Source: Chloroflexia bacterium
Lineage (GTDB): Bacteria > Chloroflexota > Chloroflexia > QHBQ01 > JADMIH01
Reading direction: 5' to 3'
DNA: 46,966 nt
Assembly: GCA_038246925.1 (NCBI GenBank)
Contig: JBBRVL010000001.1
Span: 1 to 46,966, forward strand
Shown piece by piece: positions 1 to 28,818 of this stretch. Both the position numbers and the translations under genes were made by a program. Numbering within the stretch: position 1 is the first letter of the stretch; every line of letters starts with the position of its first letter. The notes under the pieces are model-generated. The model was not told where the DNA came from. It did not search any database and worked only from the letters and a program-made list of their open reading frames with translations.

Positions 1-92
1 CCGACCGTTAAGGCTTCCTCCTCTTTCAGCGGAGGTAGAGAGCGAAACGTGAAACATGACGTAAGCTAATTCACGTTTCACGCTTCTTCCTA

Positions 93-107: not shown

Positions 108-461
108 ATGAACGACAACGCGGCGGACATCGGCCCGGTTGAGCCTCATTCAGTGGTGATGGAAGAGGCAACAAACCGGCTTTTTATTGAGTGGAGCGAT
201 GGTGTCACAACTCAGTACCCAATCGAGTGGCTCCGCTGGCAGTGCCCCTGCGCCATGTGCAGAGGCGAGATGGGCGCGCCGGGCAGGCTCGACCACGTGA
301 AGACGCTGGCCCTGGAAGAGACCCAGCTTGTGAACGTTCAGCCTGTCGGACGGTATGCCGTGATGCCATTCTGGGCCGACGGCCATCATGATGGCATCTT
401 TACATATCAGTGGTTGCGTGCGAACTCTCAGGACGATGTCCTGGCCCGCCCCGAAGCATAA
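108..461 (+). CDS. DUF971 family protein (gamma-butyrobetaine hydroxylase-like N-terminal domain)
   Basis: 117 aa. Contains FIEWSDG...YPIEWLRWQCPCAMCRGE and a C-terminal FWADGHHDGIFTYQWL, the typical DUF971 pattern. Confidence 0.8.
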   Translation: MNDNAADIGPVEPHSVVMEEATNRLFIEWSDGVTTQYPIEWLRWQCPCAMCRGEMGAPGRLDHVKTLALEETQLVNVQPVGRYAVMPFWADGHHDGIFTYQWLRANSQDDVLARPEA

Positions 462-1424
462 GTGGACGCACCCTCAAAACGCACCGGCGCTGGGTCGCCA
501 CCAGCCAACACCCACATGCAGTCTGGAGATGACTCTCCCATAAGCCTACTTGCAGATTCCGCGTCGGATCAGGCGCTTGAAGCCCGCATCGAAGCGGCTA
601 TAGACCCGTGGCTGGCGCATATGGCCTGGCGCAAGGACTTTGCCCAGTGGCGCGACAGGCGCATCTGGCAGGAAGAGCACCAGGCCACCAGCTTGAAGGA
701 TGTCAAGGCGGCTCTTGGCCCCAGTGTGGGCGAGAAGCATGTGCTTGATCTCGGTGCAGGGATGGGTGGGCTATCTGTAGCGCTCTTGCGCGAATTAGGC
801 ACAGAGGGTCTGCGGCTGGAGGCTATGGATTACAATCACGCGTATTGCCTGATTGCACGCTTGCGGGCTCAGCGATATGGACTGCGTTTGCCGATAGTAG
901 TTGCCGCCGGTGAGCAATTGCCTTACGCCTCAGCCGTGTTTGATCTGGTAATCTGCCTGGATGTTCTTGAGCACGTAGCCGATGCGCCTTCTGTCCTGCG
1001 TGAGATGTACCGAGTGGTGCGGCCGGGCGGTACAGTATTGACGACAGTTCCAAATCGTCACGCCTTCCGCGACCCGCATTACCATCTCCCATTGATCAAT
1101 TGGCTGCCGCGTGCTCTAGCGGAGCGTATAGTGGAACGTGCGGGTAGGTCGAAATCCGGTGGACCTCTGCATGATCGGCAAGCTCTATCCGAGTTAAATA
1201 CCTATACCTGGGGACAGTTCCAGCGTCTTGCTGATACTACAGGGTTTCGTGTGCGGGATCAGGTATTTGAGCGGATACAAGGCGGCGAAATCAGATTACT
1301 AACGGGATTGCGCCGGACGTTGCTTTCCAGGCTCGCCCGAACGCCACTTCTGAGGCTCCTCTACAGCTTGTACAGGTATGGATGGCAGGGCACGTTTCAG
1401 ATTACTATGGTCAAACCCAGGTGA
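462..1424 (+). CDS. Class I SAM-dependent methyltransferase
   Basis: Motif I VLDLGAGMGG, then DLVICLDVLEHV and RVVRPGGTVL. The GTG start directly abuts the upstream stop, but the real start could be the internal ATG near 516. Confidence 0.8.
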   Translation: MDAPSKRTGAGSPPANTHMQSGDDSPISLLADSASDQALEARIEAAIDPWLAHMAWRKDFAQWRDRRIWQEEHQATSLKDVKAALGPSVGEKHVLDLGAGMGGLSVALLRELGTEGLRLEAMDYNHAYCLIARLRAQRYGLRLPIVVAAGEQLPYASAVFDLVICLDVLEHVADAPSVLREMYRVVRPGGTVLTTVPNRHAFRDPHYHLPLINWLPRALAERIVERAGRSKSGGPLHDRQALSELNTYTWGQFQRLADTTGFRVRDQVFERIQGGEIRLLTGLRRTLLSRLARTPLLRLLYSLYRYGWQGTFQITMVKPR

Positions 1425-2578
1425 AGATAGCTCTTTACAACCTCACTACCACCACGCGTTGGGGCGGTGTCGAGATGTTCGTCTGGGAGGTCGCTGCTCA
1501 ATTAGCCGGGCGCGGTCACAGGGTTGACATCATAGGTGGACGTGGGCCGCGCGACCTTGTGAGAAGCACACCCGGCGTCAGGGTGTTCCGGCTTCCCTAT
1601 TTAGACCGTGATATCTGGCGGAAACTTCCTTTAGTTTCCAGGCAATATACCCTTACCAAGCTGCTCGAACGGCTGAGTATGCTCCCATTTGCTGTCCCAC
1701 GCTTGTTGTCCGGGCGCTACGATATAGTTCACATCCAGAAGCCCTACGATTTGCCGGTTGGTCTCTTTACAAAGTTAGGTAGGGCCAAACTGTTGTTCGG
1801 CTGTCATGGTAAGGACTTCTGGTTTGGTGACAAGGCTTTCGTCCCTCTATCCGATGGCGCGGTCGCCGCGAGCAAGTATAATGCAACGCAAGTCGAGCGA
1901 CGGTATAAGATCAACCCCGTGGTGATCTATAACGGGGTTGATCTCGAGCGCTTCAGGCCAGAACCACTTCATCCCGGAACTGACGACGCGGTACTGGCAA
2001 GGCTAGGTTTGGAGCGATCTACAAGCCTCGAACCTGCAATCCTATATGCAGGTAGGCTGATTCGCTGGAAGGGCGTTGAGTACCTGATCAAGGCACTTCC
2101 TCTGCTTGAGCCAGCATCGACCCGCCTGTGGATAGCCGGAGAAGGGACATATCGCAGTGATTTGGAGCGTTTGGTAAGCGAGCTTGGCGTAGAAGATCGC
2201 GTACGATTCCTTGGCAAGCTGGAACAAGACGATCTGGTGTCACTTTACAGGTCAGCCGCAATGCTGGTGGCAACATCGTTTGTCAACGAGACCTTCGGCA
2301 TGGCGCTCTGCGAAGCGATGGCTTGTGAGGCAGCGGTGGTAGCGACCAACTTCGGTGGATTCCGCGAAGTGGTGCAGGATGGGATCACAGGCTTGTTGGT
2401 GCGGCCCCAGGACCCGGCTGATCTGGCGGCGAAGATAAATACCCTTCTGGCCGACCCGCAGCGAGCCAAAGAGTTCGGGCGGGCAGGGCGAGCGCGCGTA
2501 ATCAACGAATTCAGTTGGAGTGCGGTAACGGACAGGTTGGAGGAGGTATACAGGTGTCTCGTCCCCTCCTCTACGTAG
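1421..2578 (+). CDS. Glycosyltransferase family 4 (GT-B fold)
   Basis: N-terminus VKIALYNLTTTTRWGGVE. C-terminal EX7E-type motif ETFGMALCEAMACEAAVV. The GTG at 1421 overlaps the upstream TGA as GTGA. The ORF track's 1382 start would overlap the upstream gene by about 40 nt. Confidence 0.85.
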   Translation: MKIALYNLTTTTRWGGVEMFVWEVAAQLAGRGHRVDIIGGRGPRDLVRSTPGVRVFRLPYLDRDIWRKLPLVSRQYTLTKLLERLSMLPFAVPRLLSGRYDIVHIQKPYDLPVGLFTKLGRAKLLFGCHGKDFWFGDKAFVPLSDGAVAASKYNATQVERRYKINPVVIYNGVDLERFRPEPLHPGTDDAVLARLGLERSTSLEPAILYAGRLIRWKGVEYLIKALPLLEPASTRLWIAGEGTYRSDLERLVSELGVEDRVRFLGKLEQDDLVSLYRSAAMLVATSFVNETFGMALCEAMACEAAVVATNFGGFREVVQDGITGLLVRPQDPADLAAKINTLLADPQRAKEFGRAGRARVINEFSWSAVTDRLEEVYRCLVPSST

Positions 2579-3762
2579 CATACCCGATGAAACTGGACCT
2601 CGGCGCCGCCAATGCGATCCAGACATATCACACGGTGCGTGAGCTAAGCAAGCTGATACCTGAAATGCGTTTGGTCGTACCACGCTGGCTTCGTGAAAGA
2701 AGCGCGTTCTCAACTCTGAATGCGCTGCACCTGCCGCGTCCTGCCGTCAACAAGCTGTCCAGATTTATACCGTGGTCCGGCTGGTCATACGTGGAACGCA
2801 CCCTCTACAGCCTTATGCTCGTTGTACTGTTACTGATCTGGAGGCTGACGGGTCGGGGCTACAAAGTAATTTACGTCAGGGACACGGTATGCGCGGCCTG
2901 GCTTGCTCTGTTACGTCGGGTGCATGGAGCCTGCCTTATCTACGAAGTGCATGACCTGGAAGCGTCGCATCCGAGCAAGGCATCGAAGTGGCCCAACGCA
3001 TTATGGAGACGATTTCTTCCGTGGCTGGATCGACTGTCGCTTCAGCGCGCAGACAGGATTGTCTCACTTACCGGCACTTTCAAGGAGTGGCTTGTGGAGG
3101 GTGGATTGCGCAGGGCAGAGGATATCTTTGTCGTACCGGATGCCTTTGTGCCGCCGGTCGAAGGTTACCCGACCAGGCGTAGTGCGCGCCGCGATCTGGG
3201 CCTGCCCGCCGGTGCGTTTATTGTGGGATACGCGGGACTAACCTTTGCATACCGTAGGCTCGACCTGCTGGTTGGGGCTTTCGCACGTCTGGCGAGTATA
3301 AATAACGGGGCTCTTCTTATGCTGGTCGGGGGCCGTCCGTTCGAGGTGAGTGAGTTACGTTCTCTTGCGGACAATCTTGGGATTGCTAAGGAGCGGATAA
3401 TCACCCCAGGGCAAGTAGAGCATGATCGCACCCCTCTCTATCTTGCGGCTGCTGATGTCCTGGTGATACCCGATACGGTTACTCAGATGACCGCCTCTCC
3501 GCTTAAGCTCTTCGAATATATGGCGGCAGGACGCGCGATAGTCTGCAAGGAGATGCCTGCGCTGCGTGAGATAGTCGATGAGAGTTCTACTCTCTTTTTC
3601 CCCGAAGGAGATGCTGATGCCCTTGCTGCATCTCTGCTAAAGCTCAAATTAGAGCCTGCGATATGCGAGGCGCTAGGTGGGGAAGCACTCAAGCTCTCAG
3701 TGAAGTATACCTACAGCGCGCGCGCCAAGACGATAGCTGAAGTGGTGGCGAGTTGCAGGTAG
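2554..3762 (+). CDS. Glycosyltransferase family 4
   Basis: N-terminus VSRPLLYVAYPMKLDLGAANAIQ. C-terminal SPLKLFEYMAAGRAIV. Start choice is uncertain between GTG 2554 and ATG 2587. Confidence 0.8.
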   Translation: MSRPLLYVAYPMKLDLGAANAIQTYHTVRELSKLIPEMRLVVPRWLRERSAFSTLNALHLPRPAVNKLSRFIPWSGWSYVERTLYSLMLVVLLLIWRLTGRGYKVIYVRDTVCAAWLALLRRVHGACLIYEVHDLEASHPSKASKWPNALWRRFLPWLDRLSLQRADRIVSLTGTFKEWLVEGGLRRAEDIFVVPDAFVPPVEGYPTRRSARRDLGLPAGAFIVGYAGLTFAYRRLDLLVGAFARLASINNGALLMLVGGRPFEVSELRSLADNLGIAKERIITPGQVEHDRTPLYLAAADVLVIPDTVTQMTASPLKLFEYMAAGRAIVCKEMPALREIVDESSTLFFPEGDADALAASLLKLKLEPAICEALGGEALKLSVKYTYSARAKTIAEVVASCR

Positions 3763-5204
3763 CGATCCCGCCACCACCCGTTACCACACCGCCACGTAGA
3801 AGCCGCTGGTGGCACGAACGGCCTCTCTTGCTGCTCTGTCTGCTGTTCATCGTGGTTGCGCCGCTTGTTACCAGCCGCATTTATGCCAGCGACGAGATCC
3901 AGTACTTTGCTTACACACACTCGATCTTCTTCGATGGCGATCTCGATTTCAGCAATCAATACTTGCACTTTTACGAATCGGATAAGGTGAAGTTCGAGCG
4001 GATATATGAGGACCTCTACAAGAAACGTGAGCCGCTAACCAACCTCCCACTAAACGTGGCTCCTATAGGTACGGGCCTGCTCTGGCTCCCTTCATTCGGT
4101 CTTGCCCACGTGTTTGTGCTTGTGGCTAACGCCCTTGGCGCATCGATCCCGGCCAACGGGTACTCTCAGCCTTATATCGTGGCGATCTGCCTGACTTCTT
4201 ATGCTCTAGGCTGCATCGGACTTCTCCTCTCCTATTCTCTTGCGCGTCGCTACTTTGACCCCTGGGTAGCTGCCCTGAGCGTTGTAACTATGTGGCTTGC
4301 GACACCTCTCATCTTCTACACGGTGGTTGCGCCCCCATGGTCACATGCTACATCGCTGTTCGCGGTAACTCTGTTCTTGTGGTATTGGGATAGGACTCGT
4401 AGCGCAGCCAATCGCACGATGCGCCAATGGGTCTTCCTGGGCGCGTGTGCTGGGTTAATGATGCTGGTTCGTGAGCAGGATGCGCTGTTCATTCTAGTAC
4501 CTATCATAGAAGCGGCAGCACGTCTATGGACCGCCTTTCGGGAGCGCGACGCGGCAGTGCGACAGGTAGTATTCTCGTGGATGAGCGGACTCTTCTTGAT
4601 GGGGGTGACGGCAGGCTTGATCTTTGTGCCGCAACTGATAGCCTATCGTATCATAACGGGCGCGTTTGGACCGTCTAAAGTCGTCTTGGGTAAGTTCACC
4701 TGGACATCGCCCAATTTCCTCAACGTGCTTTTCGCGCCGGACCATGGTCTGATTCCCTGGACACCTGTAGTTCTGTTGGCTGCTATAGGGCTTGTACTTC
4801 TATGGCGGCGTGATAAGCTCCTAACTACGGCGCTGGCGGCTGCGATGTTGGTGCAGGTATACGTGGCCGGGTCATTTCTGACGTGGCAAAGCGCGGGGTC
4901 GTTTGGGCAGCGGCGCTTCATCAATAGCACGTCTATCTTCGTGCTTGGGGCGTGCGCGCTGGTCGCATTCGTGTTGGCGCATGGAATGCCCAGGTGGGTC
5001 CCTGTCGTTGTAGCCCTTATCTTTGTCGCGTGGAACGGGGGGCTGTTGATGCAGTATGCCCTGTGGTGCTCGCCCCAGCGCCAGGGCCTCGACTGGGCAA
5101 CCGTTCTGAGGGGCCAGTTGGAGATGCCTGTCCGAGCCTCTCAGTTGCTATGGGACTATGTCACTGATCGGAGTAAGTTTTACCGGAGCACCCGCCAGTG
5201 TTGA
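3753..5204 (+). CDS. Polytopic membrane protein, putative GT-C fold glycosyltransferase (ArnT/PMT-like)
   Basis: 483 aa with about 11-12 hydrophobic segments. An acidic DE motif follows the first TM segment (YASDEIQYFAYTHSIFFDGDLDF), as in GT39/GT83-type enzymes. The TTG start overlaps the upstream gene by 10 nt. Confidence 0.55.
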   Translation: MQVAIPPPPVTTPPRRSRWWHERPLLLLCLLFIVVAPLVTSRIYASDEIQYFAYTHSIFFDGDLDFSNQYLHFYESDKVKFERIYEDLYKKREPLTNLPLNVAPIGTGLLWLPSFGLAHVFVLVANALGASIPANGYSQPYIVAICLTSYALGCIGLLLSYSLARRYFDPWVAALSVVTMWLATPLIFYTVVAPPWSHATSLFAVTLFLWYWDRTRSAANRTMRQWVFLGACAGLMMLVREQDALFILVPIIEAAARLWTAFRERDAAVRQVVFSWMSGLFLMGVTAGLIFVPQLIAYRIITGAFGPSKVVLGKFTWTSPNFLNVLFAPDHGLIPWTPVVLLAAIGLVLLWRRDKLLTTALAAAMLVQVYVAGSFLTWQSAGSFGQRRFINSTSIFVLGACALVAFVLAHGMPRWVPVVVALIFVAWNGGLLMQYALWCSPQRQGLDWATVLRGQLEMPVRASQLLWDYVTDRSKFYRSTRQC

Positions 5205-5280
5205 CCTGCACCTGCGTGAGTGCTAGAATCCAGTCCGTGGCTAGCCCTCGCTACATGCTTGCGTCCCATAGGAACTTTTC

Positions 5281-6366
5281 TTGATTTCTAAACGCTTACT
5301 GAACGCTATCACCTGTATATCCAGCGAGTGCGCCGGGCGTGGTTCCCGACTAATCGCGCATTCTAACTCTGCCGACATTACCTCGCTGCGCTGCACAGTA
5401 TGTGACCGCGCCTACCATGTTGCTGAGGGCTATATCGACTTGATGCCGCCTTCTGACGCTGACGATACCTCCCATACTTCCCTGTATGTGGTGCATGAGG
5501 AGGAGTTCGCTGCTACCCTCGATTACCGGGCCATCTCCGTTCCGTTGCTTGGAGCCGGGGTGCGGCAGCGGGCCATCCGGCGGTTGCTCAAGCTGACCAG
5601 GGATGATCGTCTGATCGAGCTTGGTTGCGGCAACGGTAAATTTCTCTTTTGGAACCGCAAGCAGGCTGATTGGGTTGTTGGTATCGACCCCGCACCCTTA
5701 TTTGCGGAGGAGGCGTTGAGACGCATCGATCTCTGCCGGGCCGATGCGCGCAACTTACCTTTCGCTGATGGCACCTTCACTGCTGCCATGTCGATAGACG
5801 TGCTTGAGCATTTGACCCTCGATGGCGTAAGAACATACCTCGGTGAGGCGCGCCGTATTCTGACGCCCGGTGGGCGGCTCTTCCTATTCTCCAATACGCG
5901 TGAAGGCTCTCGGCTGGACTTCGTTGTAAGGGGAGCGCGCATCATGTCGAAATGGCTAGGCGATATTGGTCTCATCGACAATAAGCGGGACAACCTGAGG
6001 AAATCAGACCATGTCAAGGCGATTGCCACCTACGATGAGCTTGAGAGTGTGCTAAGGGGTGCGGGATTCAGGGTAGAGAAGGTGGTGTTCTGGAATGGGT
6101 TATTCCAGAGCTTGATAGAGAACCTGGTGGTCAAGCTCGGCGAGGCGGCGCTCCGCAAGCGTAGCAAATCAGTTATGGTGGAGACAACCAGTGTTGCGGG
6201 GAGTGATGCCGTCAGATCATCGGTTCGAAATGTGCTGGCACGGCGTGGTGTTGAATACAGACTTCTCCTGTTACTTACGGAGTTGATGTGGCTTGATCTC
6301 GTACTCTTCGGATCGTGGCGGGCCGGGCCATACTTTCTTCTTGCGCGATGCGAGGAGACGCCTTGA
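5281..6366 (+). CDS. Class I SAM-dependent methyltransferase with N-terminal Trm112-like zinc-ribbon
   Basis: N-terminal Cys pairs CISSEC ... CTVCDRAYHVAEGYIDLMP. Methyltransferase motifs IELGCGNGKF, SIDVLEHL and RILTPGGRLFLFS. The TTG start is uncertain. Confidence 0.8.
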   Translation: MISKRLLNAITCISSECAGRGSRLIAHSNSADITSLRCTVCDRAYHVAEGYIDLMPPSDADDTSHTSLYVVHEEEFAATLDYRAISVPLLGAGVRQRAIRRLLKLTRDDRLIELGCGNGKFLFWNRKQADWVVGIDPAPLFAEEALRRIDLCRADARNLPFADGTFTAAMSIDVLEHLTLDGVRTYLGEARRILTPGGRLFLFSNTREGSRLDFVVRGARIMSKWLGDIGLIDNKRDNLRKSDHVKAIATYDELESVLRGAGFRVEKVVFWNGLFQSLIENLVVKLGEAALRKRSKSVMVETTSVAGSDAVRSSVRNVLARRGVEYRLLLLLTELMWLDLVLFGSWRAGPYFLLARCEETP

Positions 6367-6388
6367 GAATATTGCCTTGAGAATATTG
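6361..6388. repeat. Perfect 14-bp tandem duplication (ccttgagaatattg x2) at a gene junction
   Basis: Copies at 6361-6374 and 6375-6388 are identical. Copy 1 holds the methyltransferase TGA stop; copy 2 holds the TTG start of the next GT4. Confidence 0.9.
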
Positions 6389-7564
6389 TATGTGGCCTCG
6401 GCAGTGGAGGCGAGCGGGACCTCAGGTGGCTCAACACACGTGCAAGAGGTGGCCTGCGGCTTGACTGCCCTCGGCCACGAAGTTCTGGTGTTAGCACGAC
6501 AGGCAACCGGCCATAACCAGAGTAGATTTGACTGTGGCGCCAGGCTGCGGCGGTCAACTTTGCCAAAGGAGCTTGCCTTGCTTGGCCGCGCTCAGATAGC
6601 GAGGGCTTTCCATCTGTTCAAGCCTGACGTCGTTATGGAGAGGTTCTATAATTTCGCCGGAGGCGGAATCTGGTTGGCCCATCGGCAAGGCGTACCCGCC
6701 CTTCTTGAAGTAAACGCCCCGATGATCGACCCACCTGGCGCTCTCAAGACGAGACTCGATAGGCTTCTTTTCGGCGTAATGAGGCGGTGGGCTGTACGTC
6801 AAGCCAACTGGGCATCGGCAATTGTGACGCCTCTTGCGTCAACAGTGCCACCCGAGGTTTCCAGGGAAAAGATTCACGAGCTAACGTGGGGTGCGAACGT
6901 CGCTACGTTCACGCCCCATTTGCGAGTGAGTCGCCCGGCAAGACTCGCCGCTCTTGCTGAGGAATTAGGGTTGCGATCCAATGGTCAGGTAGCGGTTTTC
7001 CTCGGGAGCTTTCGAGCGTGGCATGGTGCGCGACATTTCGCTGAGGCTGCCAGAAATTTGATCAAATCAGGCAGCGATCTCTCGTTCCTGGCGGTCGGTG
7101 GCGGGCCTGAGCTAGGGCCTGTGTCGGAAGAAGCCAGGCGGTGGGACCTTCCGCTTGGACGTTTGGTCTTCACCGGACCCCAGCCGCATGACAAGATTCC
7201 CGATATTCTGGCGCTCGCAGACATAGGTGTGGCACCATTTCATCTGGACGCGTACCCCCCTCTCAAGACATTCGGCTTTTACTGGTCGCCTCTAAAGGTA
7301 TTTGAATATATGGCGTCTGGGCTGCCTGTGGTCACCATAGATGTCCAGCCGCTCAATTCTATCGTACGGCACGAGCAGGAGGGTCTGCTGTTCAAGTCAG
7401 GCGATGTAAACGGCCTGGTGACTGCTATCAGGCGGCTTGAAAGTGACCGTGATCTCGCTGTGAGGCTCGGGGAGAGTGCGCGTGCCAGGGTTGTGCAGAA
7501 TTATAGCTGGGAGCGTCACTGCCAGGAATTGGACCTGCTCCTGCGGGGTATGGCCGGTGCGTGA
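6377..7564 (+). CDS. Glycosyltransferase family 4
   Basis: With the TTG at 6377 the N-terminus reads (M)RILYVASAVEASGTSGGSTHV. C-terminal SPLKVFEYMASGLPVV. The ORF track's 6293 start lies inside the upstream gene. Confidence 0.8.
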   Translation: MRILYVASAVEASGTSGGSTHVQEVACGLTALGHEVLVLARQATGHNQSRFDCGARLRRSTLPKELALLGRAQIARAFHLFKPDVVMERFYNFAGGGIWLAHRQGVPALLEVNAPMIDPPGALKTRLDRLLFGVMRRWAVRQANWASAIVTPLASTVPPEVSREKIHELTWGANVATFTPHLRVSRPARLAALAEELGLRSNGQVAVFLGSFRAWHGARHFAEAARNLIKSGSDLSFLAVGGGPELGPVSEEARRWDLPLGRLVFTGPQPHDKIPDILALADIGVAPFHLDAYPPLKTFGFYWSPLKVFEYMASGLPVVTIDVQPLNSIVRHEQEGLLFKSGDVNGLVTAIRRLESDRDLAVRLGESARARVVQNYSWERHCQELDLLLRGMAGA

Positions 7565-10141: not shown

Positions 10142-10143
10142 AT

Positions 10144-12939
10144 GTGCTGAGAACGCTGCTCGGCATCGCCCTTTTACCAGTATATCTGTACGTTCCGGGC
10201 GCGGTGCTACTTAGTGGGGTTGGGAGACGGGCAGGTGGCCCTCTGCCGTTCGCCGGCCGCGAGGAGTGGGTCTTCGTTGCTGCCGTTGTGAGCTTGCTTG
10301 TAACCGGCGTTGTGGGGTTGACGCTCGCGCAGATCGGGCTTTTTAGCTGGTGGCTTGTTCTTCTGGTGAACATCCTGTTGTCGGTTGCTCTTTCCATGAG
10401 GGCCTGGAACGGTGTGTGGTCATATCGTGGACTCCTTCAAGCTCTCGCGCCACCACGGCCCGCGCCCCAGCGTATGGAAGACCGCAAGCAGGCGCGTTTG
10501 CAACGATTTGGCCTCCTGGGTGTCGCTCTGCTGGCCCTGGTTCTGTTCTCACGACCCGCCGAGATGTTGCGGGGCGCTCTCGACTCAGGGGTCTATATCA
10601 ATTCGGGTGTTGGCATCGGCAGGACAGGCGCGATATTCCAGCGAGACTTACTCATGCGCCAGCTCAACGACGACGCGGGCGAGGGTAGGCAAGTAATGCA
10701 GGAGTTGAACCGGGACAGATACACGCTGTACCGCCTGAGGATGCCGGGGTTTTACGTGTACGATAAGCAGGCCGCCCTGGTAGTGCCGCAGCATTACTCA
10801 TTATTCCCTGTGTGGATAGGGCTTCTCTACTCCTTGTTTGGGATCTGGGGAGCGCTATATGCGACGCCACTGCTCGCTTTCTTGTCGGTCGTTACGGTTT
10901 ATTTCTTTGCTCGGCGGGCGCTCACACCGGGCGCGGCGCTGTTGGCGCTATTGTTCCTGGTGCTCTGTCCCGTCACGATATGGTTCGCCCGCTATCCGAT
11001 AGCCGAGGTGCTTACTGGTCTACTCGCATTTATCGGCTTCTATGCGTTCATGCGTATGATACAGGCAGATCGCCTCGCCTATGTGACGGGTAGCCAATTG
11101 ACTTCACCCGTTGAACCGCCCGCGCCGTCTGCTCGACCGTGGGCTTTGTTCTGGGGCGCGCTCGCGGGTGTCGCCCTGGGGCAGATTGCACTGGCACGTG
11201 CTGACTTCATCTTCTATCTAGCGCCTATCGTACCATATCTACTCTATTGGCGACTTGGCAGGCGATGGCGATCCGAATACAGTTGGTTCGCTGGCGGGCT
11301 TCTGATGATGCTTGTGCTTTTCCTGGTCCATTTCTTCTTCTTCAGCTTTGGATACACCTTAGATCTCTATCACAATGTTCTTCAGGACATTCGCCGCCTC
11401 TGGTCTCCCCTCTTGCTCGCACTGTATGTGGGGGTGCCGTTGCTCATTTTGCTCGACAGACTCTATTCACGTCTCGCGCCGGTATGGTTGCGTGCAGGCC
11501 GTTGGATAAAGCAGTACGCCTGGTTACTTGTGGGCGCTATAGTTCTCGCCGTAGGGGTTTACGCTATATATCGCTACCTTGTCGGACCCTGGCTCCCTAA
11601 TCTTCGCACAGACAATGCGGGGCGAGCCTTGCCGCAGGAGGTCATCACAACCTGGCAGAGCTATATTGGCGCGCCCGTCGACTTGGGCGAGCGCTATAAC
11701 CTGCTGAGGATTGGCTGGTACCTCTCTCCGCTTGGTATGCTGCTTGGTGTTGTCGGATTCTTACGTCTGATATGGAATAGACTCAATGCCGCAACCGGGC
11801 TCTTTTTTGGCGTATTCTTTGTTTTAACCTTTATCTTCCTCGAAGAGAGCTATACCGACCCACATTATATCTACACTATGCGTCGCTACATCGCCGTGAC
11901 TCTGCCCGGTTTACTTTTAGGGGCTGCGTGGGCCTGCCAGTTTTTGTGGGCGCGCCTGCGTCCTCGGACGGTTGGGCGGGTGTTGGCTGGAGCGCTCGCT
12001 TCTGCACTATGCATCTTCTTCATATATACATCGCAAACAATCGTAAAGCACGTTGAAGCCAATGGGGCCGTCCAACAGTTGTCTGATCTAGCCGCTCGAA
12101 TACCCGAGAAGTCGGTAGTGCTTTTTAGCAATGAGCGTGACGAGCCTTTTGTAGTGGCAACACCCTTACAATACATTTTCGGTATCGAGAGTTTTGTGCT
12201 GAACCGTCCCTATCCGGATGTGAAGAATGAGGTTCTCAATGGCATGGTTGAGAGGTGGCGCAAACAGGGATACAATGTCTGGGTATTGATGAGCGCGAAC
12301 GGCGGCAAACTGAATCTTCCGAGTTATTCGTTGAAGGAAGAGGGAGCGTGGGATTACGACGTTCCAGAATTCGAGCAGCTACTTTACCAGAAGCCGTACA
12401 ATGTTTCGCGGTCATACCTGCCGTGGGGCCTCTATTCTGTTCAAGCTAAAACTCCTTCGCAAGGGCTACCCTTTAGTCTAGATATAGGCGTCATGGATTA
12501 CAAATGGCTGGTCGCAGGCTTCTACTTGCAGGAGCAGGCTGAAGCGGATAGCTCACCCTGGCGGTGGACCGGCGACCACTCCGTTCTGCGGCTGCCATTA
12601 GAGAAAGCGGGCGATGGTAAAACTTTCACGGCAGCCACTCTCAAACTTCGTTTGCGTCCTGAAACACCTGTCACCAATCAGGGTGCGGTGCGGAAGGAGC
12701 CGGTGACGGTCACACTCCGGCTTGGCGAGAGTAATATTGGTCAGGTAACAGTGCCCCCAGGTACGGGTTTTGTCGATTACACCGTGAGGATACCGGCAGG
12801 GGTGGCAGTGCAGAGTGATGAGCCTGACGGCGCTCTTCTGCATATCTTAGCGCCAACATGGTCAGGCCAACGCGCCGGAATCAGTTATGACCAACGGGCG
12901 CTCGGTATTCAAATCGATTCTGTCGAAGTAACACCTTGA
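10144..12939 (+). CDS. Large polytopic membrane protein (931 aa), putative GT-C-like glycosyltransferase with a roughly 300-aa C-terminal soluble domain
   Basis: Many hydrophobic segments run through about residue 635, followed by a hydrophilic, beta-rich-looking tail. Sits inside the GT cluster with a GTG start 2 nt after the upstream stop. No family signature could be confirmed by eye. Confidence 0.5.
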   Translation: MLRTLLGIALLPVYLYVPGAVLLSGVGRRAGGPLPFAGREEWVFVAAVVSLLVTGVVGLTLAQIGLFSWWLVLLVNILLSVALSMRAWNGVWSYRGLLQALAPPRPAPQRMEDRKQARLQRFGLLGVALLALVLFSRPAEMLRGALDSGVYINSGVGIGRTGAIFQRDLLMRQLNDDAGEGRQVMQELNRDRYTLYRLRMPGFYVYDKQAALVVPQHYSLFPVWIGLLYSLFGIWGALYATPLLAFLSVVTVYFFARRALTPGAALLALLFLVLCPVTIWFARYPIAEVLTGLLAFIGFYAFMRMIQADRLAYVTGSQLTSPVEPPAPSARPWALFWGALAGVALGQIALARADFIFYLAPIVPYLLYWRLGRRWRSEYSWFAGGLLMMLVLFLVHFFFFSFGYTLDLYHNVLQDIRRLWSPLLLALYVGVPLLILLDRLYSRLAPVWLRAGRWIKQYAWLLVGAIVLAVGVYAIYRYLVGPWLPNLRTDNAGRALPQEVITTWQSYIGAPVDLGERYNLLRIGWYLSPLGMLLGVVGFLRLIWNRLNAATGLFFGVFFVLTFIFLEESYTDPHYIYTMRRYIAVTLPGLLLGAAWACQFLWARLRPRTVGRVLAGALASALCIFFIYTSQTIVKHVEANGAVQQLSDLAARIPEKSVVLFSNERDEPFVVATPLQYIFGIESFVLNRPYPDVKNEVLNGMVERWRKQGYNVWVLMSANGGKLNLPSYSLKEEGAWDYDVPEFEQLLYQKPYNVSRSYLPWGLYSVQAKTPSQGLPFSLDIGVMDYKWLVAGFYLQEQAEADSSPWRWTGDHSVLRLPLEKAGDGKTFTAATLKLRLRPETPVTNQGAVRKEPVTVTLRLGESNIGQVTVPPGTGFVDYTVRIPAGVAVQSDEPDGALLHILAPTWSGQRAGISYDQRALGIQIDSVEVTP

Positions 12940-12967
12940 GGCAATGACGAATTGGCTATCAGCTATT

Positions 12968-13081
12968 GGTTCAAGGTTCAAGGTTCAAAGTTGCTAATGC
13001 CTAATCCAAACAATAAAAATCTTGGCGGTTTCTTGGCGCTCTTGGCGTCTTGGCGGTTCCGTCCTAATTCGTAATTCGTAA
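12968..13081. repeat. Three adjacent short tandem repeat arrays: GGTTCAA x3, CTTGGCG x4 (variable 1-4 nt spacers) and TAATTCG x2.4
   Basis: GGTTCAA array at 12968-12988. CTTGGCG copies at 13021, 13032, 13041 and 13049. TAATTCG array at 13065-13081. All lie in the 154-bp spacer before the flippase gene. Confidence 0.85.
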
Positions 13082-13093
13082 GAAGATCACTTT

Positions 13094-14704
13094 ATGGCAG
13101 CAGAGAGCAAAAGGCAGGCGAGCAAACCACTGGTCGAGCGGGCAGGTTGGGCCGTGTTATGGAACGCGGCCTTCTTTCCGATCAAGATACTGGTTCCGTT
13201 CGTATCGAGCGTGATAGTGGTGCGCTCACTACGCGGTGAGGGCTTTGCGATCCTTAGCCTGGCAACGGCGCTGCTGACCTTTCTTGGGCTTTTCGCCGAC
13301 CTCGGGATCGAGCGGACCCTGCCTCGTTTTTACCCTGAAATCGAGATGCGTTACGGGAGGCGCGGCACCGTCCGTCTCCTCTTCATGGTAGCGCTCATAA
13401 AGGGTGGTGTGCTACTCCTCCTGATAGGGGCATTAGCACTCTTCCCCGATTACTGGATTAGAACTTTCAATCTCGGCGAAACGGGCGGGTGGCTTCTCTT
13501 TTTCATTGCTATACTCCTTGTTCTGGGGGCAGCTTCGGATGTGTCGGTGCAGTTTCTGTACGCGCATTTTCGCCAGAAGGTAACGAACTCGCTGGACGTG
13601 CTTGCCGCCGTGGTATATCCAACTCTCACCGCGCTGCTGGTGCTGGCGGGCTGGAATGTGCTGGGCGCGATTCTGGCTCTCCTTATCACGACTATTCTCT
13701 CAGTGGCGCTGGCCTTGTGGCAGGTCTGGCGACTCCTGCGCGAGATGCCCGAGGAGCCGCATAGGAAAGCCTCGGAAGTGAAAATTCCCTCTAGCCGCTC
13801 GCTCCGACAGAGATTGGTCTCATTTGCCGGGCTGAATTATCTGATCAACTGGACTGTCTACCTGTACGACCTCCCGTTCGTGGTGCTGACCGTCAGCCTA
13901 CTGGTCACGGCGCCAAAGGATAAGACACTAGAAGTGGCAGTTGTAGCCCTGGCCTATAAGTTTACCAAGCAGTTCTTACGTGCGCTTGTTGTGCCGCTAA
14001 CCGGGGTACAGACGCCATTGTTCGCCCGTCTGTATGCGGAGGGCCGCATCGAGGGGCTGAACACAGCGTATGCCACTATAACCAAGTTTTTACTGCTTGC
14101 CCTGCTTCCCTCTGGTGTCGGGCTTGTGTTGATCGCGCGTAATGTGCTTCAGGTACTTTATGGGCAGGTAGGGCTTGATGCGGTGGTCACCCAACTCACT
14201 ATGCCAACGATAATTGCCTGCACCGCAATCCTTGCATTCGGGCTTTTCGGCGAGGCCATTATCAGCGTTGCGCTCAATGTCTTGATGGTTTATGAGGATT
14301 ATCGTGCGGTGATCACGGCCCGGTTAGTGGCGCTGGTAAGTATTCCATTGATGCTATTGCTTGTGCCTGAGTTTGGGGCGGTGGGGGCAGCGCTGGCGGC
14401 GGCAACTGCGGGACTGGCTTCTCGTGGAGTCGCCCTCGGCTATGCTGTTACTCGTTTGGATTTGCGATTCCCTGGACGTTTTTTCGTGCGGGTTGGCACT
14501 TCCTCTTTACTCATGGGTGTGGCGCTTCTCCCCTTTCTCGCGTTCCTCCCACCCAATATTCTCTCTACGATCCTAATGCTGCTGACAGGCGTAGCAGTCT
14601 TCTATGCAGCGTTCAAATTGCTCGGGGGAATGGACACGGAGGACAAGGACAGGTTCGCGGCATTACGCATCCCGTTCGCCCAGACTCTTCTGAGGTTCCT
14701 TTAA
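13094..14704 (+). CDS. Polysaccharide/oligosaccharide flippase of the MOP superfamily (Wzx-like)
   Basis: 536 aa with about 14 TM segments. The N-terminal pattern (IKILVPFVSSVIVVRSLRGEGFAILSLA) is typical of polysaccharide biosynthesis protein (Wzx) families rather than MurJ. Confidence 0.75.
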   Translation: MAAESKRQASKPLVERAGWAVLWNAAFFPIKILVPFVSSVIVVRSLRGEGFAILSLATALLTFLGLFADLGIERTLPRFYPEIEMRYGRRGTVRLLFMVALIKGGVLLLLIGALALFPDYWIRTFNLGETGGWLLFFIAILLVLGAASDVSVQFLYAHFRQKVTNSLDVLAAVVYPTLTALLVLAGWNVLGAILALLITTILSVALALWQVWRLLREMPEEPHRKASEVKIPSSRSLRQRLVSFAGLNYLINWTVYLYDLPFVVLTVSLLVTAPKDKTLEVAVVALAYKFTKQFLRALVVPLTGVQTPLFARLYAEGRIEGLNTAYATITKFLLLALLPSGVGLVLIARNVLQVLYGQVGLDAVVTQLTMPTIIACTAILAFGLFGEAIISVALNVLMVYEDYRAVITARLVALVSIPLMLLLVPEFGAVGAALAAATAGLASRGVALGYAVTRLDLRFPGRFFVRVGTSSLLMGVALLPFLAFLPPNILSTILMLLTGVAVFYAAFKLLGGMDTEDKDRFAALRIPFAQTLLRFL

Positions 14705-14705
14705 G

Positions 14706-15926
14706 ATGAGGGTTGCTATCGTTACGACCGCGGGAGTAACCAGGCAATTCAGGCAGTGGCCCGAGGCGATACTTGGGCGGGCTCTTATAGCGCGTGGCCA
14801 CACTGTTTCGGCATTCACTTTGCGCGAGAAAGGCTCTGCCATAACCGGAGAACGCTGGGAGGATGTTGATGGAATAGATGTGCGGCGTGTTGAGGTCAGC
14901 AAGGCATGGACAGCACCGGCCTTGCCGCTCGCGCTGGCTAGCTTCGGGCCTGATGTCATCCACCTTTTTCACCTGAGGAACGCTCTGAACTGGCAAGCAA
15001 TAATCGTTGCGCGCCTCTTACGCGTCCCGGTCGTGTTCACCGTAGTAGGCCCGTTCCACGACCCCTACCTCGTTGACGACCGTGAGCGGCCATATTCGGG
15101 GAAAATGTACCCACGACGTTTGATTTATACTCCAACCAGATTACTACGTCGTCTGGCACAGTCACGGGGCCGCAAGCCGCTGGCGATCTGGCAGAACTGG
15201 TGTATGCACTACCCGATGGCCGCAGCGGACCGGCTGATTGCACTTTCTCGTCATGAGGTTGGGTTGCTTCGGATCATGGGATTTGGTCCCGCGAAGGTAA
15301 GGCAGATCCCTCTCTGGATTGACGTGCTATATATCAGGTCGGTGCCGTTTGGCGAGTCTCTAGCTGCGTCGTACACATCGCCCCATATCCTTTTCCTCGG
15401 CCAGCTAAAGGAGCGTAAAGGTTATGATCTCCTTGCGCGTGCTATGCCAAGTGTACTCGCCCAGTTTCCAACAGCCACATTTCTCTTCGCGGGACAGAAC
15501 CCGGCCCAGGCAGGCAATTTGACCAGGATATGCTCTCAGAATGGAAGTCTTGAGCGTACGGTGCTGCTTGGCCGCGTCGAGGAAGAAGACAAGGTGAGGC
15601 TGATGCGCTCGTCCGACTGCCTGGTGTATCCAACTCGCTACGAGAGCTTCGGTCTGCCTCCGATCGAGGCAATGGCCTGCGGGTGCCCTGTGGTAGCGAC
15701 GAATATTCCGGTCGTAAACGAGATGATCACACATGGCGTGAACGGCATCCTTGTAGAACGGGAGGACCCAGTTTCGTTGGCCGAAGGTATCATTCGTCTG
15801 CTGAAAGATAGCTCGCTCCGAAAGGCTCTTGTTGCTGGGGGGTACCAGACACTGGAACGATACGCGGAGCCAATCCAGATAGCCCGTATGGAGAAGCTCT
15901 ATATGGAACTTACGGCAAGATCATAG
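14706..15926 (+). CDS. Glycosyltransferase family 4
   Basis: MRVAIVTTAG at the N-terminus. ESFGLPPIEAMACGCPVVATN supplies the EX7E motif. Starts 1 nt after the flippase stop. Confidence 0.85.
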   Translation: MRVAIVTTAGVTRQFRQWPEAILGRALIARGHTVSAFTLREKGSAITGERWEDVDGIDVRRVEVSKAWTAPALPLALASFGPDVIHLFHLRNALNWQAIIVARLLRVPVVFTVVGPFHDPYLVDDRERPYSGKMYPRRLIYTPTRLLRRLAQSRGRKPLAIWQNWCMHYPMAAADRLIALSRHEVGLLRIMGFGPAKVRQIPLWIDVLYIRSVPFGESLAASYTSPHILFLGQLKERKGYDLLARAMPSVLAQFPTATFLFAGQNPAQAGNLTRICSQNGSLERTVLLGRVEEEDKVRLMRSSDCLVYPTRYESFGLPPIEAMACGCPVVATNIPVVNEMITHGVNGILVEREDPVSLAEGIIRLLKDSSLRKALVAGGYQTLERYAEPIQIARMEKLYMELTARS

Positions 15927-16010
15927 TAGAGCATATCATTGTAGCATGATGATCGCTGCTTACTCGCAATTTACTCAACCATGCTAATTACATGGGAGTG
16001 ATAACACTAC

Positions 16011-16019
16011 TGTTATAAT
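16011..16019 (+). promoter_or_regulatory. Extended -10 promoter element (TGtTATAAT) 6 nt upstream of the GTG at 16026
   Basis: tgttataat at 16011-16019. Its spacing to the start codon is the same as for the element at 93-101. Confidence 0.4.
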
Positions 16020-16025
16020 AACGCG

Positions 16026-17336
16026 GTGATTCTACAAATCCAAAATCCAAAATCCAAAATCCAAAATCCGCTACGCGTTCTCTATTTGATTGGCTCTTAT
16101 GGACCCCATGTAATGGGTAACGCCAGCCACGAGCAGATGGTACTCGCGCTCCGGGCACGCGGCCACGATGTTGATGTATTCACCCAGATTACAGAGCCGG
16201 GGAAGCCGCTCTACACAAAAGCGGTCTATTCAGGTGTTACTGTCTATCAGGTGAACCTGACCGCTTCGGGTAGCCGTCTGGGTGGTTGGGTGCGTCCACT
16301 CGCAAGTAAGCTGCTACAGTACGAATACCTACCACAGATCGTCGCGGCATTTCGACGGCATCTTCGCACTCGTGAATATGACCTCCTACACGTAGAGGGA
16401 GCTTATCCTTTTGGTCTGGTTGCCGCGCTTACAGCGGGGAAAACGCCGTTTCTGGTGAATGTACAGGGTGCGGATGTCATCAGACTTCCTGAGGCGGACT
16501 ATGGGTATCGCCGCTTCCGACTACCCAGGGCGGCAGTATCATTCGTTTTCAAACGGGCGTCACTTGTGCGCTCTATATCGCCCCTCCTTGCGGATTACAT
16601 CGTGGGCGAAGGACTGGTAGAACGGGAGCGCGTCGAAGTGATTCTACGTTCTATCGAAGACTCGGCCTTTCCCCCGCCAGGAGAGCAACTTGATGATTTC
16701 CGGTCGGACAGCAGGCGTGAGATTGGCGACCGCTACGGGGTTGGGTTGAACAGGCCAATAGTTATTGCCCTCAGTCGCTTACACCCGTTCAAGGGCCTGG
16801 AATACCTTGTGGATGCTATTCCGCAGGTAATAGCCGCCCGGAATGCAGAGGGTAAACAGCCGCCCTGGTTCTTGATATGCGGGCCAAGCAGAAGTACGCC
16901 CAACTTTGGCGATTACCGCGAGTTTCTTCTACATCGAGCTGCCGACAACGGCGTCGCGTCACACATTGTATTCACCGGGCAGGTTCCGCATGACGAAGTA
17001 CGTTGCCACCTTGCCTCGGCGCACGTGCTGGTCTGTCCATCGATTATTGAGGCTCAAAACAAGGTTGTGCCGGAGGCGTGCGCGGTTGGTACGCCGTCCG
17101 TTGTCACTTCTACTACAGGCATCACCTCTTATCTGGCACCGCTCGATGCCTGCATATCTGTGCCTCCGCGAGATGCCGATGCAATTGCGGAAGGGGTGCT
17201 TGATATGCTGAACTCTTCCGAGGCCTACAGCCATTTGCAGCAAAGGGCGTTGCGTGCAGCCGAGACGCTGCGTACTGAGACGCTAGCGCCAAAGTTGGAA
17301 AGTCTTTGGTACCGCACGGCTCAGCAGAAGGGCTAG
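16026..17336 (+). CDS. Glycosyltransferase family 4
   Basis: LRVLYLIGSYGP forms the first beta strand. EAQNKVVPEACAVGTPSV supplies the EX7E motif. The only canonical in-frame start upstream of that strand is the GTG at 16026, which places the heptamer tract in the coding sequence. Confidence 0.75.
   Translation: MILQIQNPKSKIQNPLRVLYLIGSYGPHVMGNASHEQMVLALRARGHDVDVFTQITEPGKPLYTKAVYSGVTVYQVNLTASGSRLGGWVRPLASKLLQYEYLPQIVAAFRRHLRTREYDLLHVEGAYPFGLVAALTAGKTPFLVNVQGADVIRLPEADYGYRRFRLPRAAVSFVFKRASLVRSISPLLADYIVGEGLVERERVEVILRSIEDSAFPPPGEQLDDFRSDSRREIGDRYGVGLNRPIVIALSRLHPFKGLEYLVDAIPQVIAARNAEGKQPPWFLICGPSRSTPNFGDYREFLLHRAADNGVASHIVFTGQVPHDEVRCHLASAHVLVCPSIIEAQNKVVPEACAVGTPSVVTSTTGITSYLAPLDACISVPPRDADAIAEGVLDMLNSSEAYSHLQQRALRAAETLRTETLAPKLESLWYRTAQQKG
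16035..16069 (+). repeat. Heptanucleotide tandem repeat (CAAATCC followed by AAAATCC x4) inside the 5' end of a GT4 ORF
   Basis: Five contiguous 7-bp units fill 16035-16069 and translate as QIQNPKSKIQNP in the GT4 frame. Confidence 0.9.
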
Positions 17337-20358: not shown

Positions 20359-20640
20359 ATCGCCCCTTATTGGTCCTTCTCGAAGCACTCGGGCCTGAGA
20401 GTAGAGGTTATCCCCTGTTCCGCAGCGAACGACACAGCTGGCCTCATATAGGCCGTGACAGTCGCTTTTGCTTTGTTGGATGCCAGGAGGGAACGCCGGA
20501 GCGATTCACCGGGGTGCAGTATTTGTCCAGTTCCTTGCTCTATCCGCGTCGTCCTACTTCGATAAGAGCTTTCTATAGCCGCATTTCCAACAGTTCATTG
20601 GTGAGTACAAGCGTGGATTATGCTCCAACCTACACGACGG

Positions 20641-20712
20641 TGGCGAGGGGCAGATTTGAACTGCCGACCAAGGGCTTATGAGTCCCCTGCTCTGCCACTG
20701 AGCTACCTCGCC
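20641..20712 (-). tRNA. tRNA with CAT anticodon (elongator Met or lysidine-dependent Ile2)
   Basis: The reverse complement folds as a cloverleaf: GGCGAGG-TA-GCTC-AGTGGCA-GAGC-A-GGGGA-CTCATAA-GCCCT-TGGTC-GGCAG-TTCAAAT-CTGCC-CCTCGCC-A. The 1-72 pair is G-C, so it is not an initiator. CCA is not encoded. Confidence 0.85.
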
Positions 20713-24227: not shown

Positions 24228-24302
24228 TGGTAGCGGGGGTAGGATTCGAACCTACGACCTTTGGGTTATGAGCCCAACGAGCTTCCGCTGCTCCACCCCG
24301 CG
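24228..24302 (-). tRNA. Initiator tRNA-fMet (CAT)
   Basis: The reverse complement is CGCGGGGTGGAGCAGCGGAAGCTCGTTGGGCTCATAACCCAAAGGTCGTAGGTTCGAATCCTACCCCCGCTACCA. It has a 1-72 mismatch, three G-C pairs closing the anticodon stem, an encoded CCA, and is near-identical in plan to E. coli tRNA-fMet. Confidence 0.92.
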
Positions 24303-28723: not shown

Positions 28724-28818
28724 TCTTTACAAACTCCTTTAGCGTACGAGTCTCGGAAACTATCATAACATAATTTAACATCGTCAAGCCACTGCCATTA
28801 AGTCCCATGGTATAAGTA

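Follow-up and report, generated by a model that had tools for sequence, protein, structure and literature searches.

The closest described parallels to the system treated here start a glycan on the cytoplasmic face of a membrane and finish it on the other side. In mycobacteria, phosphatidylinositol mannosides (PIM), lipomannan (LM), lipoarabinomannan (LAM) and arabinogalactan depend on cytoplasmic GT4 glycosyltransferases (PimA, PimB), followed by many GT-C enzymes that act outside (PimE, Mpt, Emb, Aft), and neither a Wzy polymerase nor an ABC exporter or synthase takes part. Eukaryotic assembly of N-glycans and glycosylphosphatidylinositol (GPI) has a similar logic, with GT-B enzymes inside (ALG2, ALG11, PIG-A), a flip, and lumenal GT-C enzymes (ALG3/9/12, PIG-M/V/B). 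In this study, we describe a glycan-assembly locus at bases 108-17336 of a 46,966-bp stretch of DNA from a Chloroflexia bacterium (assembly GCA_038246925.1, contig JBBRVL010000001.1). This stretch, called the window below, is an entire contig of a metagenome-assembled genome (MAG), as the exact protein encoded by the tenth gene of the locus is on record on one NCBI contig. We propose, with a rough probability of 60%, that the locus builds an envelope glycoconjugate, methylated in part, along a split-compartment route, using GT4 enzymes inside the cell, a flippase, and GT-C enzymes outside. By analogy, the best reading is that it resembles the mycobacterial LM/LAM/arabinogalactan logic rather than Wzy polymerization or en-bloc protein glycosylation.

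An open reading frame (ORF) scan of bases 108-17336 recovers thirteen tightly packed ORFs (g1 to g13), all on the + strand, just as they had been listed in a first-pass annotation made from the letters alone. They encode one DUF971 protein, two S-adenosylmethionine (SAM) methyltransferases, seven GT4 enzymes, one Wzx/MOP flippase and two polytopic proteins. The junctions quoted in that annotation are all present as well: a GTGA overlap of g2 and g3 (1421-1424), an ATGA overlap of g8 and g9 (8888-8891), gaps of 2 nt between g9 and g10 (10141/10144) and of 1 nt between g11 and g12 (14704/14706), and three spacers (5205-5280, 12940-13093 and 15927-16025). The idea that these genes form a complete unit has to be abandoned, however. 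Bases 1-38 (+ strand), read in frame 3 as DR*GFLLFQRR*, are the 3' end (last 12 codons) of a gene for a DUF2079-family membrane protein, whose orthologue in the closest relative (locus L003; 80-85% identity) precedes g1 and ends in DREGFLLFRRR*. Since the window is the entire contig and opens with the end of this gene, the locus runs past the contig edge, and base 108 is not its true start. The same DUF2079 gene lies immediately 5' of g1 in L003, L005, L007, L009-L016, L026, L029 and L083. The remnant itself carries an in-frame TAA at 9-11, nine codons ahead of the normal stop, at a position where the closest relative has GAA (Glu); it represents either a slightly shortened DUF2079 protein or a contig-end error.

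The upstream half was read from the contigs of relatives, after g1-g13 had been mapped by tblastn on more than 80 related loci. The full locus could be reconstructed from L085 plus L005 (NCBI JBDTQH010000013), from L086 (JGI, 424 kb) and from L083. It starts after the isoleucyl-tRNA synthetase gene (IleRS) with a small cytochrome c, a GT4, a 712-aa protein with PMT_2 and TPR domains, a PMT_2-like protein of ~500 aa, a 61-aa Trm112p-like protein and another GT4. These are followed by a YfhO/DUF6311-like protein of ~750 aa, four polytopic paralogues of 650-700 aa, a methyltransferase, DUF2079, g1-g13, and finally hpt and tilS; one genome has an extra YfhO-like protein (718 aa) between g13 and hpt. 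The upstream half, bounded by IleRS, thus holds ~14 co-oriented genes, including two GT4 genes, a third methyltransferase gene, the Trm112-like gene and genes for ~8 GT-C-type proteins (PMT_2+TPR, PMT_2-like, YfhO/DUF6311-like, the four paralogues and DUF2079). Altogether, the full locus counts ~27 genes, with nine GT4, three methyltransferases, one Wzx and ~10 polytopic GT-C-type proteins. The window genes are therefore the downstream 13 of a ~27-gene, 35-40 kb locus in an uncultured soil lineage of Chloroflexia. Because the unit is of this size, with nine GT4 and ~10 GT-C-type proteins, the earlier estimate of a heptasaccharide-scale glycan, derived from seven GT4 enzymes, has lost its basis.

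The two large membrane proteins (483 and 931 aa) had been called GT-C-like, and structure prediction bears this out. AlphaFold2 models built on alignments of 56 homologues for g5 (pLDDT 91.9) and 62 for g10 (pLDDT 90.9, pTM 0.91) show that both are predicted to adopt a GT-C fold. In Foldseek searches against the PDB, essentially only GT-C structures match their membrane parts, and every match there at E <= 1e-3 is GT-C. The gene g5 (3753-5204) encodes a GT-C-fold glycosyltransferase of the PMT_2 family with ~10 transmembrane (TM) helices (PF13231, 33.1 bits; gathering cut-off 26.1) and is conserved more widely than any other of the thirteen genes. Its fold matches are ALG12, AftA, ArnT, STT3, PglB, Pmt4 and Emb. 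An invariant D47, part of a D-[ES] pair in the alignment of 56 homologues, stands in the motif SD47EIQY of the first extracytoplasmic loop, directly after TM1. The protein is thus akin to the ArnT/PMT enzymes of families GT39-GT83 in exceeding the PMT_2 gathering score, in the Asp-Glu pair of its first outward loop and in its matches to ArnT, Pmt4 and AftA. Unlike these enzymes, however, g5 has no soluble domain and no arnC/arnEF-like or dpm1-like partner genes, and its gene is set between those of GT4 enzymes and a methyltransferase.

The second protein, g10 (10144-12939), has no Pfam match, including PMT_2; its link to that family goes through distant homologues carrying PF13231 and through an hhalign comparison with g5, in which the homology of the cores is weak (73% probability, E 3e-5). 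In the model, three extra N-terminal TM helices precede a GT-C core (residues ~111-635), an alpha/beta domain (~642-716) and two beta-sandwiches (~728-931). E140 and D147, conserved at 97-98% in a 62-sequence alignment, are located in a long outward loop after the helix 111-135, and the distribution of positive charges suggests that this loop and the D47 loop of g5 face the outside. The best Foldseek matches of g10 are STT3, PglB and AglB (E 5e-8 to 3e-6), followed by ALG12, ArnT, ALG9, AftD, EmbA/B, DPY19 and Pmt4. TM-scores are modest, between 0.3 and 0.5 across g5 and g10. Sequence and profile searches of the PDB gave no match for either protein, which together with the modest TM-scores marks them as distant GT-C families without solved relatives. 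Of the mycobacterial GT-C enzymes, Emb and AftD, which have soluble domains of carbohydrate-binding type, appear among the structural matches of g10. At the sequence level, neither g5 nor g10 shows homology to any solved GT-C. Compared to the mycobacterial system, the locus also belongs to another phylum, has a Wzx-like flippase and two to three methyltransferases, and lacks Ppm1-like or DPPR-type donor genes. The likeness to the eukaryotic pathways, for which ALG12 and ALG9 as top fold matches of g5 and g10 also speak, is one of logic and not of family membership: the locus is bacterial, lacks an ALG7-type primer and includes methyltransferases as well.

The C-terminal part of g10 is informative about the probable acceptor. 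Its beta-sandwiches find carbohydrate-binding modules (CBMs) and similar jelly rolls as fold matches (Foldseek), and hhalign detects homology (98.7% probability, E 1.8e-16) between its final 157 residues and the N-terminal ectodomain of the four upstream paralogues, a domain for which there is no Pfam model. The module is rare: a single-sequence search of 1.84 billion proteins returned 56 cluster representatives, in which it is mostly C-terminal in proteins of 800-1000 aa. In the paralogues of L083, L085 and L086, one TM helix comes first, followed by the beta-sandwich ectodomain of ~150 aa, with a recurring strand motif, D-x-R-x-L-G-[VI], at its end. In Emb and AftD, the soluble domains are taken to bind a common polymeric glycan substrate. 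By the same token, a module that recurs in five membrane enzymes of a single locus most plausibly reflects a shared polymeric glycan substrate, and would point to a glycan acceptor and stepwise extension as in Emb and AftD. We therefore favor a stepwise extracytoplasmic elaboration over en-bloc transfer to protein.

Such a transfer is one reading of the end step suggested earlier, which was to be oligosaccharyltransferase-like or ArnT/PMT-like: a lipid-linked oligosaccharide would be flipped and then moved as a whole onto a protein, for example of the S-layer, by g10. STT3, PglB and AglB are indeed its best structural matches, and both have a large extracytoplasmic C-terminal region behind the GT-C core; there is a weak NCBIfam match to the archaeal STT3 model TIGR04154 (E 2.9e-4), and the PMT_2+TPR protein in the full locus of the relatives has an architecture seen in protein-glycosylating GT-C enzymes. 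Yet neither WWDYG nor any W[WFY]D[YWF][GA] motif occurs in g10 or its 61 aligned relatives, the TIGR04154 score amounts to 19.3 bits against a cut-off of 450, and no Pfam STT3 match was found. TM-scores of g10 to STT3-type structures (0.3-0.4) are similar to those to ALG12, ArnT and AftD, and g10 differs further from this family by its three extra N-terminal helices. The jelly-roll C-terminus shared with the four paralogues fits a glycan acceptor, and ~10 GT-C-type proteins far exceed the need of an en-bloc mechanism. In addition, the SLH proteins mentioned in the first-pass annotation could not be confirmed, as no SLH domain is present in any window ORF scanned and no S-layer gene was detected in the window. 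We consider en-bloc transfer by g10 very unlikely.

Between the two sides of the membrane, the stepwise route would rely on g11 (13094-14704; 536 aa). This protein had been described as a Wzx-like MOP flippase, and rightly so: it scores above the cut-offs of both Polysacc_synt (40 bits; cut-off 28.2) and Polysacc_synt_3 (34.5 bits; cut-off 23), and its hydropathy profile shows ~12 hydrophobic segments, in accordance with ~12 TM helices; NCBIfam gave no match. On the cytoplasmic side, all seven GT4 proteins reach 59-148 bits on PF00534, with the N-domain (Glyco_transf_4/4_4) matched too. Their description as EX7E-type enzymes holds for five of them, namely g3 (1421-2578; ETFGMALCE; Glycos_transf_1, 148 bits), g8 (7557-8891, with a Cys-rich insertion in the N-domain), g9 (8888-10141; Glycos_transf_1, 116.6 bits), g12 (14706-15926; Glycos_transf_1, 130 bits) and g13 (16026-17336). 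In contrast, g4 (2554-3762; SPLKLFEYMA) and g7 (6377-7564; SPLKVFEYMA) keep the second Glu only (SPLK[LV]FEYMA). Three of these starts lie inside the longest ORF. For g4 (longest ORF from 2515), GTG at 2554 is the likely start, being preceded by the Shine-Dalgarno sequence GGAGGAGG and consistent with orthologues of 401-402 aa. For g7 (longest ORF from 6293) it is likely TTG at 6377, and for g8 (longest ORF from 7476) likely GTG at 7557, the L002 orthologue measuring 446 aa.

Both methyltransferases, g2 (462-1424; 320 aa, class I; Methyltransf_11, E 3e-19) and g6 (5281-6366; 361 aa; Methyltransf_11, E 3e-16), are confirmed as members of Methyltransf_11/25, and g2 has no NCBIfam model at cut-off. 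The Trm112-like zinc ribbon ascribed to g6 could not be confirmed: despite an N-terminal Cys4 motif, this region gave no Trm112p profile match at E <= 10 and no BLASTP match to the true Trm112p-like gene of the relatives. In a more distant relative, L087 (g10 orthologue at 42% identity, on a 2.6-Mb contig), a g6-type methyltransferase and a g7-type GT4 are fused into one 677-aa protein (5374-7407), which ties the methyltransferase to the glycosylation steps; a GT-C protein of the TMEM260_N (DUF2723) type is encoded nearby. At the g6/g7 junction of the window (6360-6388) we observed an exact 14-nt tandem duplication (GCCTTGAGAATATT x2.1), of which copy 1 holds the g6 stop TGA (6364-6366) and copy 2 the likely g7 start TTG (6377). 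In relatives the orthologues overlap by 4 nt, and the duplication seems to have split a formerly overlapping stop and start into two copies. The remaining gene, g1 (108-461; 117 aa), which the first-pass annotation left without a name, encodes a small DUF971/GBBH-like_N protein (PF06155, E 3.5e-22) that is syntenic in close relatives but does not occur in the Thermomicrobiales and Acidobacteriota versions discussed below.

Equally characteristic is what the locus lacks. A Pfam scan of every substantial ORF in the window found no Bac_transf, MraY/WecA, Wzy_C, Wzz, ABC-exporter or sugar-nucleotide domain, in agreement with the first-pass annotation. Nor are a primer and a Wzy/Wzz set located directly upstream of the window: up to IleRS, relatives have GT-C-type proteins, GT4s and a methyltransferase, and precomputed and fresh Pfam lists contain no Bac_transf, Glycos_transf_4 (MraY/WecA), Wzy_C or Wzz over the ~38-kb reconstructed locus. 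A primer was likewise not found in the flanks of the relatives' loci, nor in the compact form of the Thermomicrobiales. At the level of Pfam domains, these negatives leave room for a divergent, unannotated polymerase. A glycan locus without a primer is not unusual, as E. coli O-antigen clusters make use of a distant wecA. It could therefore be argued that this is an ordinary Wzx/Wzy exopolysaccharide (EPS) or wall-polymer locus, with primer, polymerase and chain-length regulator elsewhere or with one of its unannotated polytopic proteins as polymerase or ligase. Like the known O-antigen, capsule and EPS loci, it combines a Wzx-like gene with many GT4 genes; several of its polytopic proteins are without a Pfam family, and WaaL-type ligases are GT-C-like too. 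But the locus differs from these by the missing Wzy, Wzz/PCP and OPX proteins in several genomes and by its ~10 GT-C-type proteins, and no WaaL, Wzy or SEDS structure is among the Foldseek matches listed for g5 and g10. Gene order and the position next to hpt-tilS are conserved across orders, unlike strain-variable EPS and O-antigen islands, and there is no GC anomaly. Together this makes an ordinary Wzx/Wzy system improbable; should the pathway nevertheless turn out to make a common wall polymer from a primer encoded far away, the locus would still stand out by its unusually many GT-C enzymes.

The consistent absence of a primer from every version of the locus keeps another option alive, which is a more specific form of the split-compartment route. 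In a primer-free lipoglycan pathway of the PIM/LM/LAM or GPI type, a GT4 would start directly on a glycerolipid or diol lipid, the MOP protein would flip the product and GT-C enzymes would elongate it to a lipoglycan anchored in the membrane. No phosphoglycosyl transferase was found even in the compact Thermomicrobiales form, which is bounded by housekeeping genes. The GT4 family includes lipid-initiating enzymes such as PimA, PIG-A and monoglucosyl-diacylglycerol synthases, and the many GT-C proteins of one locus (two in the window, ~8 more upstream) mirror the mycobacterial LM/LAM logic. Weak, sub-threshold NCBIfam matches to lipid-acting GT4 (GlcN_PG_synth, MGlcDAGSynMgs) point in the same direction, yet they are far below their cut-offs and no better than those to soluble-acceptor GT4 families. 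Moreover, the locus has no acyltransferase and no Ppm1-like gene, Wzx-type flippases are classically linked to polyprenyl-diphosphate-linked units, and a distant primer (wecA, tagO) is a common arrangement. We regard direct initiation on a membrane lipid as a tentative option, unlikely but to be kept in view.

The distribution of the locus is that of a stable chromosomal trait. The genes g1-g13 are fully colinear, with amino-acid identities of 52-85%, in at least 14 independent Chloroflexia MAG contigs. MAGs of the Thermomicrobiales (L033, L038, L041, L048) contain a compact 12-gene form near the same hpt-tilS genes, in the order methyltransferase (g2), Wzx (g11), GT4 (g3, g12, g13, g4), GT-C (g5), two methyltransferases (the second being g6) and GT4 (g7, g8), so that the g2 orthologue is kept at its head. 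Its borders are a dihydrolipoamide-dehydrogenase-like gene and, at the opposite end, trmA-like, ftsH, hpt and tilS genes. The block g4-g5-g6-g7 is conserved over many Chloroflexota lineages, and in Chloroflexus, Roseiflexus, Oscillochloris and Herpetosiphonaceae homologues of g5 (~40% identity) occur either singly or together with g13-g4. The divergence of the locus proteins is about that of the proteins encoded in the flanks (HPRT 75% and TilS 42% for L001), and GC content is uniform over the locus and its flanks. The retained hpt-tilS position in two orders, the flat GC profile and the flank-like divergence argue, at the level of sequence, for vertical inheritance and a core envelope function rather than a mobile EPS island. 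A horizontally acquired EPS island was accordingly rejected, given the uniform GC content and the position conserved across orders.

The same comparisons bear on whether the locus serves one pathway or two. In L002, g1-g10 are kept while unrelated genes occupy the site of g11-g13, and there are spacers ahead of g11 and g13, the latter gene with a -10-like box of its own. Hence two pathways might be juxtaposed, one comprising g1-g10 with the upstream genes and the other a separate g11-g13 module. However, the other syntenic contigs long enough to show this site have g11-g13 after g10, and in the Thermomicrobiales g11, g12 and g13 are intermixed with g2, g3 and g4 within a single tight cluster, which argues for one pathway. 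Two independent pathways are thus quite doubtful.

We therefore return to the single split-compartment route. In the first step, GT4 enzymes (seven here, nine in the full locus) would add sugars from nucleotide sugars to a lipid-linked acceptor at the cytoplasmic face. SAM methyltransferases (two here, three in the full locus) would then methylate the glycan, and g11 would carry the intermediate across the membrane. Outside, the GT-C enzymes (g5, g10 and ~8 encoded upstream) may extend, decorate or attach the glycan with polyprenyl-phosphate-linked donors, the CBM-like beta-sandwich of g10 and the four upstream paralogues keeping these enzymes attached to one common polymer. The initiating enzyme and the polyprenyl-phosphate sugar synthases would be encoded elsewhere, unless the first GT4 starts directly on a membrane lipid. 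Donor types, the order of steps, the methylation of sugars and the nature of product and acceptor are all inferred. A cytoplasmic polymethylated polysaccharide, comparable to the mycobacterial methylglucose lipopolysaccharide and methylmannose polysaccharide (MGLP/MMP), was considered too and rejected, as every Chloroflexota version has the MOP flippase and outward GT-C proteins.

Several observations weigh against this route. Its steps are deduced from genes and predicted folds, and no cultured carrier of the locus was identified here. No GT2 polyprenyl-phosphate-sugar synthase, which would be needed for GT-C donors, is present in the locus. The membrane parts of the four paralogues are weakly linked to GT-C (hhalign 30% probability; ArnT E 2.4e-4), and g2 and g6 are generic class I methyltransferases whose substrate is deduced from context only. 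Acidobacteriota (Vicinamibacteria, Marinacidobacterales) have a five-gene core g5-g6-g7-g8-g9 with no Wzx nearby. Finally, the flippase and the last two GT4 enzymes may form a separable module, since L002 lacks g11-g13 and g13 has a promoter-like box of its own. The flanks of the Acidobacteriota core in L077 give no clue to a primer or to the pathway: upstream there is nothing but a GNAT protein, an unknown protein and a GT4, and downstream there are unrelated genes. Overall, the glycan-assembly interpretation of the first-pass annotation survives with regard to the enzyme classes, the GT-C assignment and the departure from an ordinary Wzx/Wzy system, whereas the 13-gene unit, the heptasaccharide and the oligosaccharyltransferase-like step have fallen away. 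Its remark that the gene combination matches no characterized pathway is still valid: no curated NCBIfam model reaches its cut-off for, or names, any locus protein, and the literature searched treats neither this locus nor a glycosyltransferase role of DUF2079 nor the GT-C enzymes of Chloroflexota. The seven GT4 proteins are generic, and g10 and most of the polytopic proteins encoded upstream fall into no curated family. The locus is an uncharacterized variant of known enzyme classes, notable for how many GT-C-type paralogues it has, for the undescribed ectodomain that some of its proteins share, and for its conservation at a fixed chromosomal site in Chloroflexia and Thermomicrobiales.

To our knowledge, no genes have been assigned to the peptidoglycan-polysaccharide complexes of Chloroflexota, and the wall polysaccharides of Herpetosiphon reportedly contain O-methyl sugars. 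The locus is a concrete genetic candidate for an outer-layer or wall polymer of this phylum. The layers outside the peptidoglycan of Chloroflexota are an old puzzle: they have been referred to as 'polysaccharides or proteins', and images look diderm although outer-membrane genes are missing (PMC13319060). Peptidoglycan-polysaccharide complexes have been described chemically (Jurgens et al., 1989, as cited in PMC3368417), and one in Herpetosiphon is cited as well (ref. 32 in PMC3368417). A bolder version of our proposal is that the locus represents a Wzy-, ABC- and synthase-independent line outside Actinobacteria, in which a GT4-initiated, flipped and methylated glycan is elongated by ~10 module-tethered GT-C enzymes and the product is the non-peptidoglycan outer layer of Chloroflexia or its peptidoglycan-bound polysaccharide. 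This is speculative and rather unlikely to be right in full; if true, it would constitute an independent LM/LAM-like solution for an outer layer in a phylum with a debated envelope architecture. The locus gains interest if its product is this missing outer-layer polymer. Because the Thermomicrobiales have cultured members, their compact form may allow genetic testing. For glycoenzyme discovery, the locus adds several GT-C families without solved or named relatives and an ectodomain without a Pfam model.

Sequence features around the genes offer some hints on expression. An extended -10-like box, TGATATAAT (93-101, + strand), ends 6 nt before the ATG of g1, and a box like it precedes the ATG in L003; it is likely a leaderless-type promoter. 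A second -10-like box, TGTTATAAT (16011-16019, + strand), ends 6 nt before the GTG of g13, and in L001 TTTATAAT stands 7 nt before the ATG of the g13 orthologue. The g13 box is likely a separate promoter of the same type. The geometry of box and start at g1 and g13 points to leaderless transcription and to a locus with two or more transcription units. A consensus scan for promoters and terminators was at background: it gave 12 promoter-like sites where 10.0 are expected and 14 terminator-like ones where 16.9 are. Just after the GTG, the 5' coding end of g13 contains a perfect heptamer array (AAATCCA x4.9, 16036-16069), which is not present in the L001 orthologue. As a change in copy number would shift the g13 frame, the array could be an on/off switch; alternatively, it could be just another short tandem array of this genome.

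Such arrays, with units of 7-9 nt in 2-4 copies, are found in the spacers at 12940-13093, 28818-28989 and 31105-31226. The first of these, preceding g11, has three on the + strand according to Tandem Repeats Finder (GGTTCAA x3.6, TCTTGGCGC x2.9 and TAATTCG x2.4). At 28818-28989, the arrays come back in mirror image, as reverse complements (AGTTCACCG...CGCAGAGA...AGGGGTT...TCTCTGCG...CGGTGAACT) and form a long composite hairpin, and units of the type CGCAGAGA / CTCTGCGC are found again at 31105-31226. The spacer arrays look like a genome-wide family of intergenic repeats.

The remaining 30 kb of the window are occupied by housekeeping genes, among them hpt, tilS, pepF, divIC, gatA/C, ftsW/rodA, ssb, rpsR, an ATP synthase operon, mreB and rplY. 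Within the ATP synthase operon, a 161-aa ORF without a Pfam family (40424-40909) lies between atpG and atpD. Ribosomal protein S18 (32321-32860) has a Gly-rich N-terminal extension of ~120 residues, encoded by imperfect repeats of 27-30 nt (32443-32553). Two tRNA-Met (CAT) genes on the - strand (20639-20712 and 24228-24302), 3.5 kb apart, flank a 426-aa ORF and pepF.

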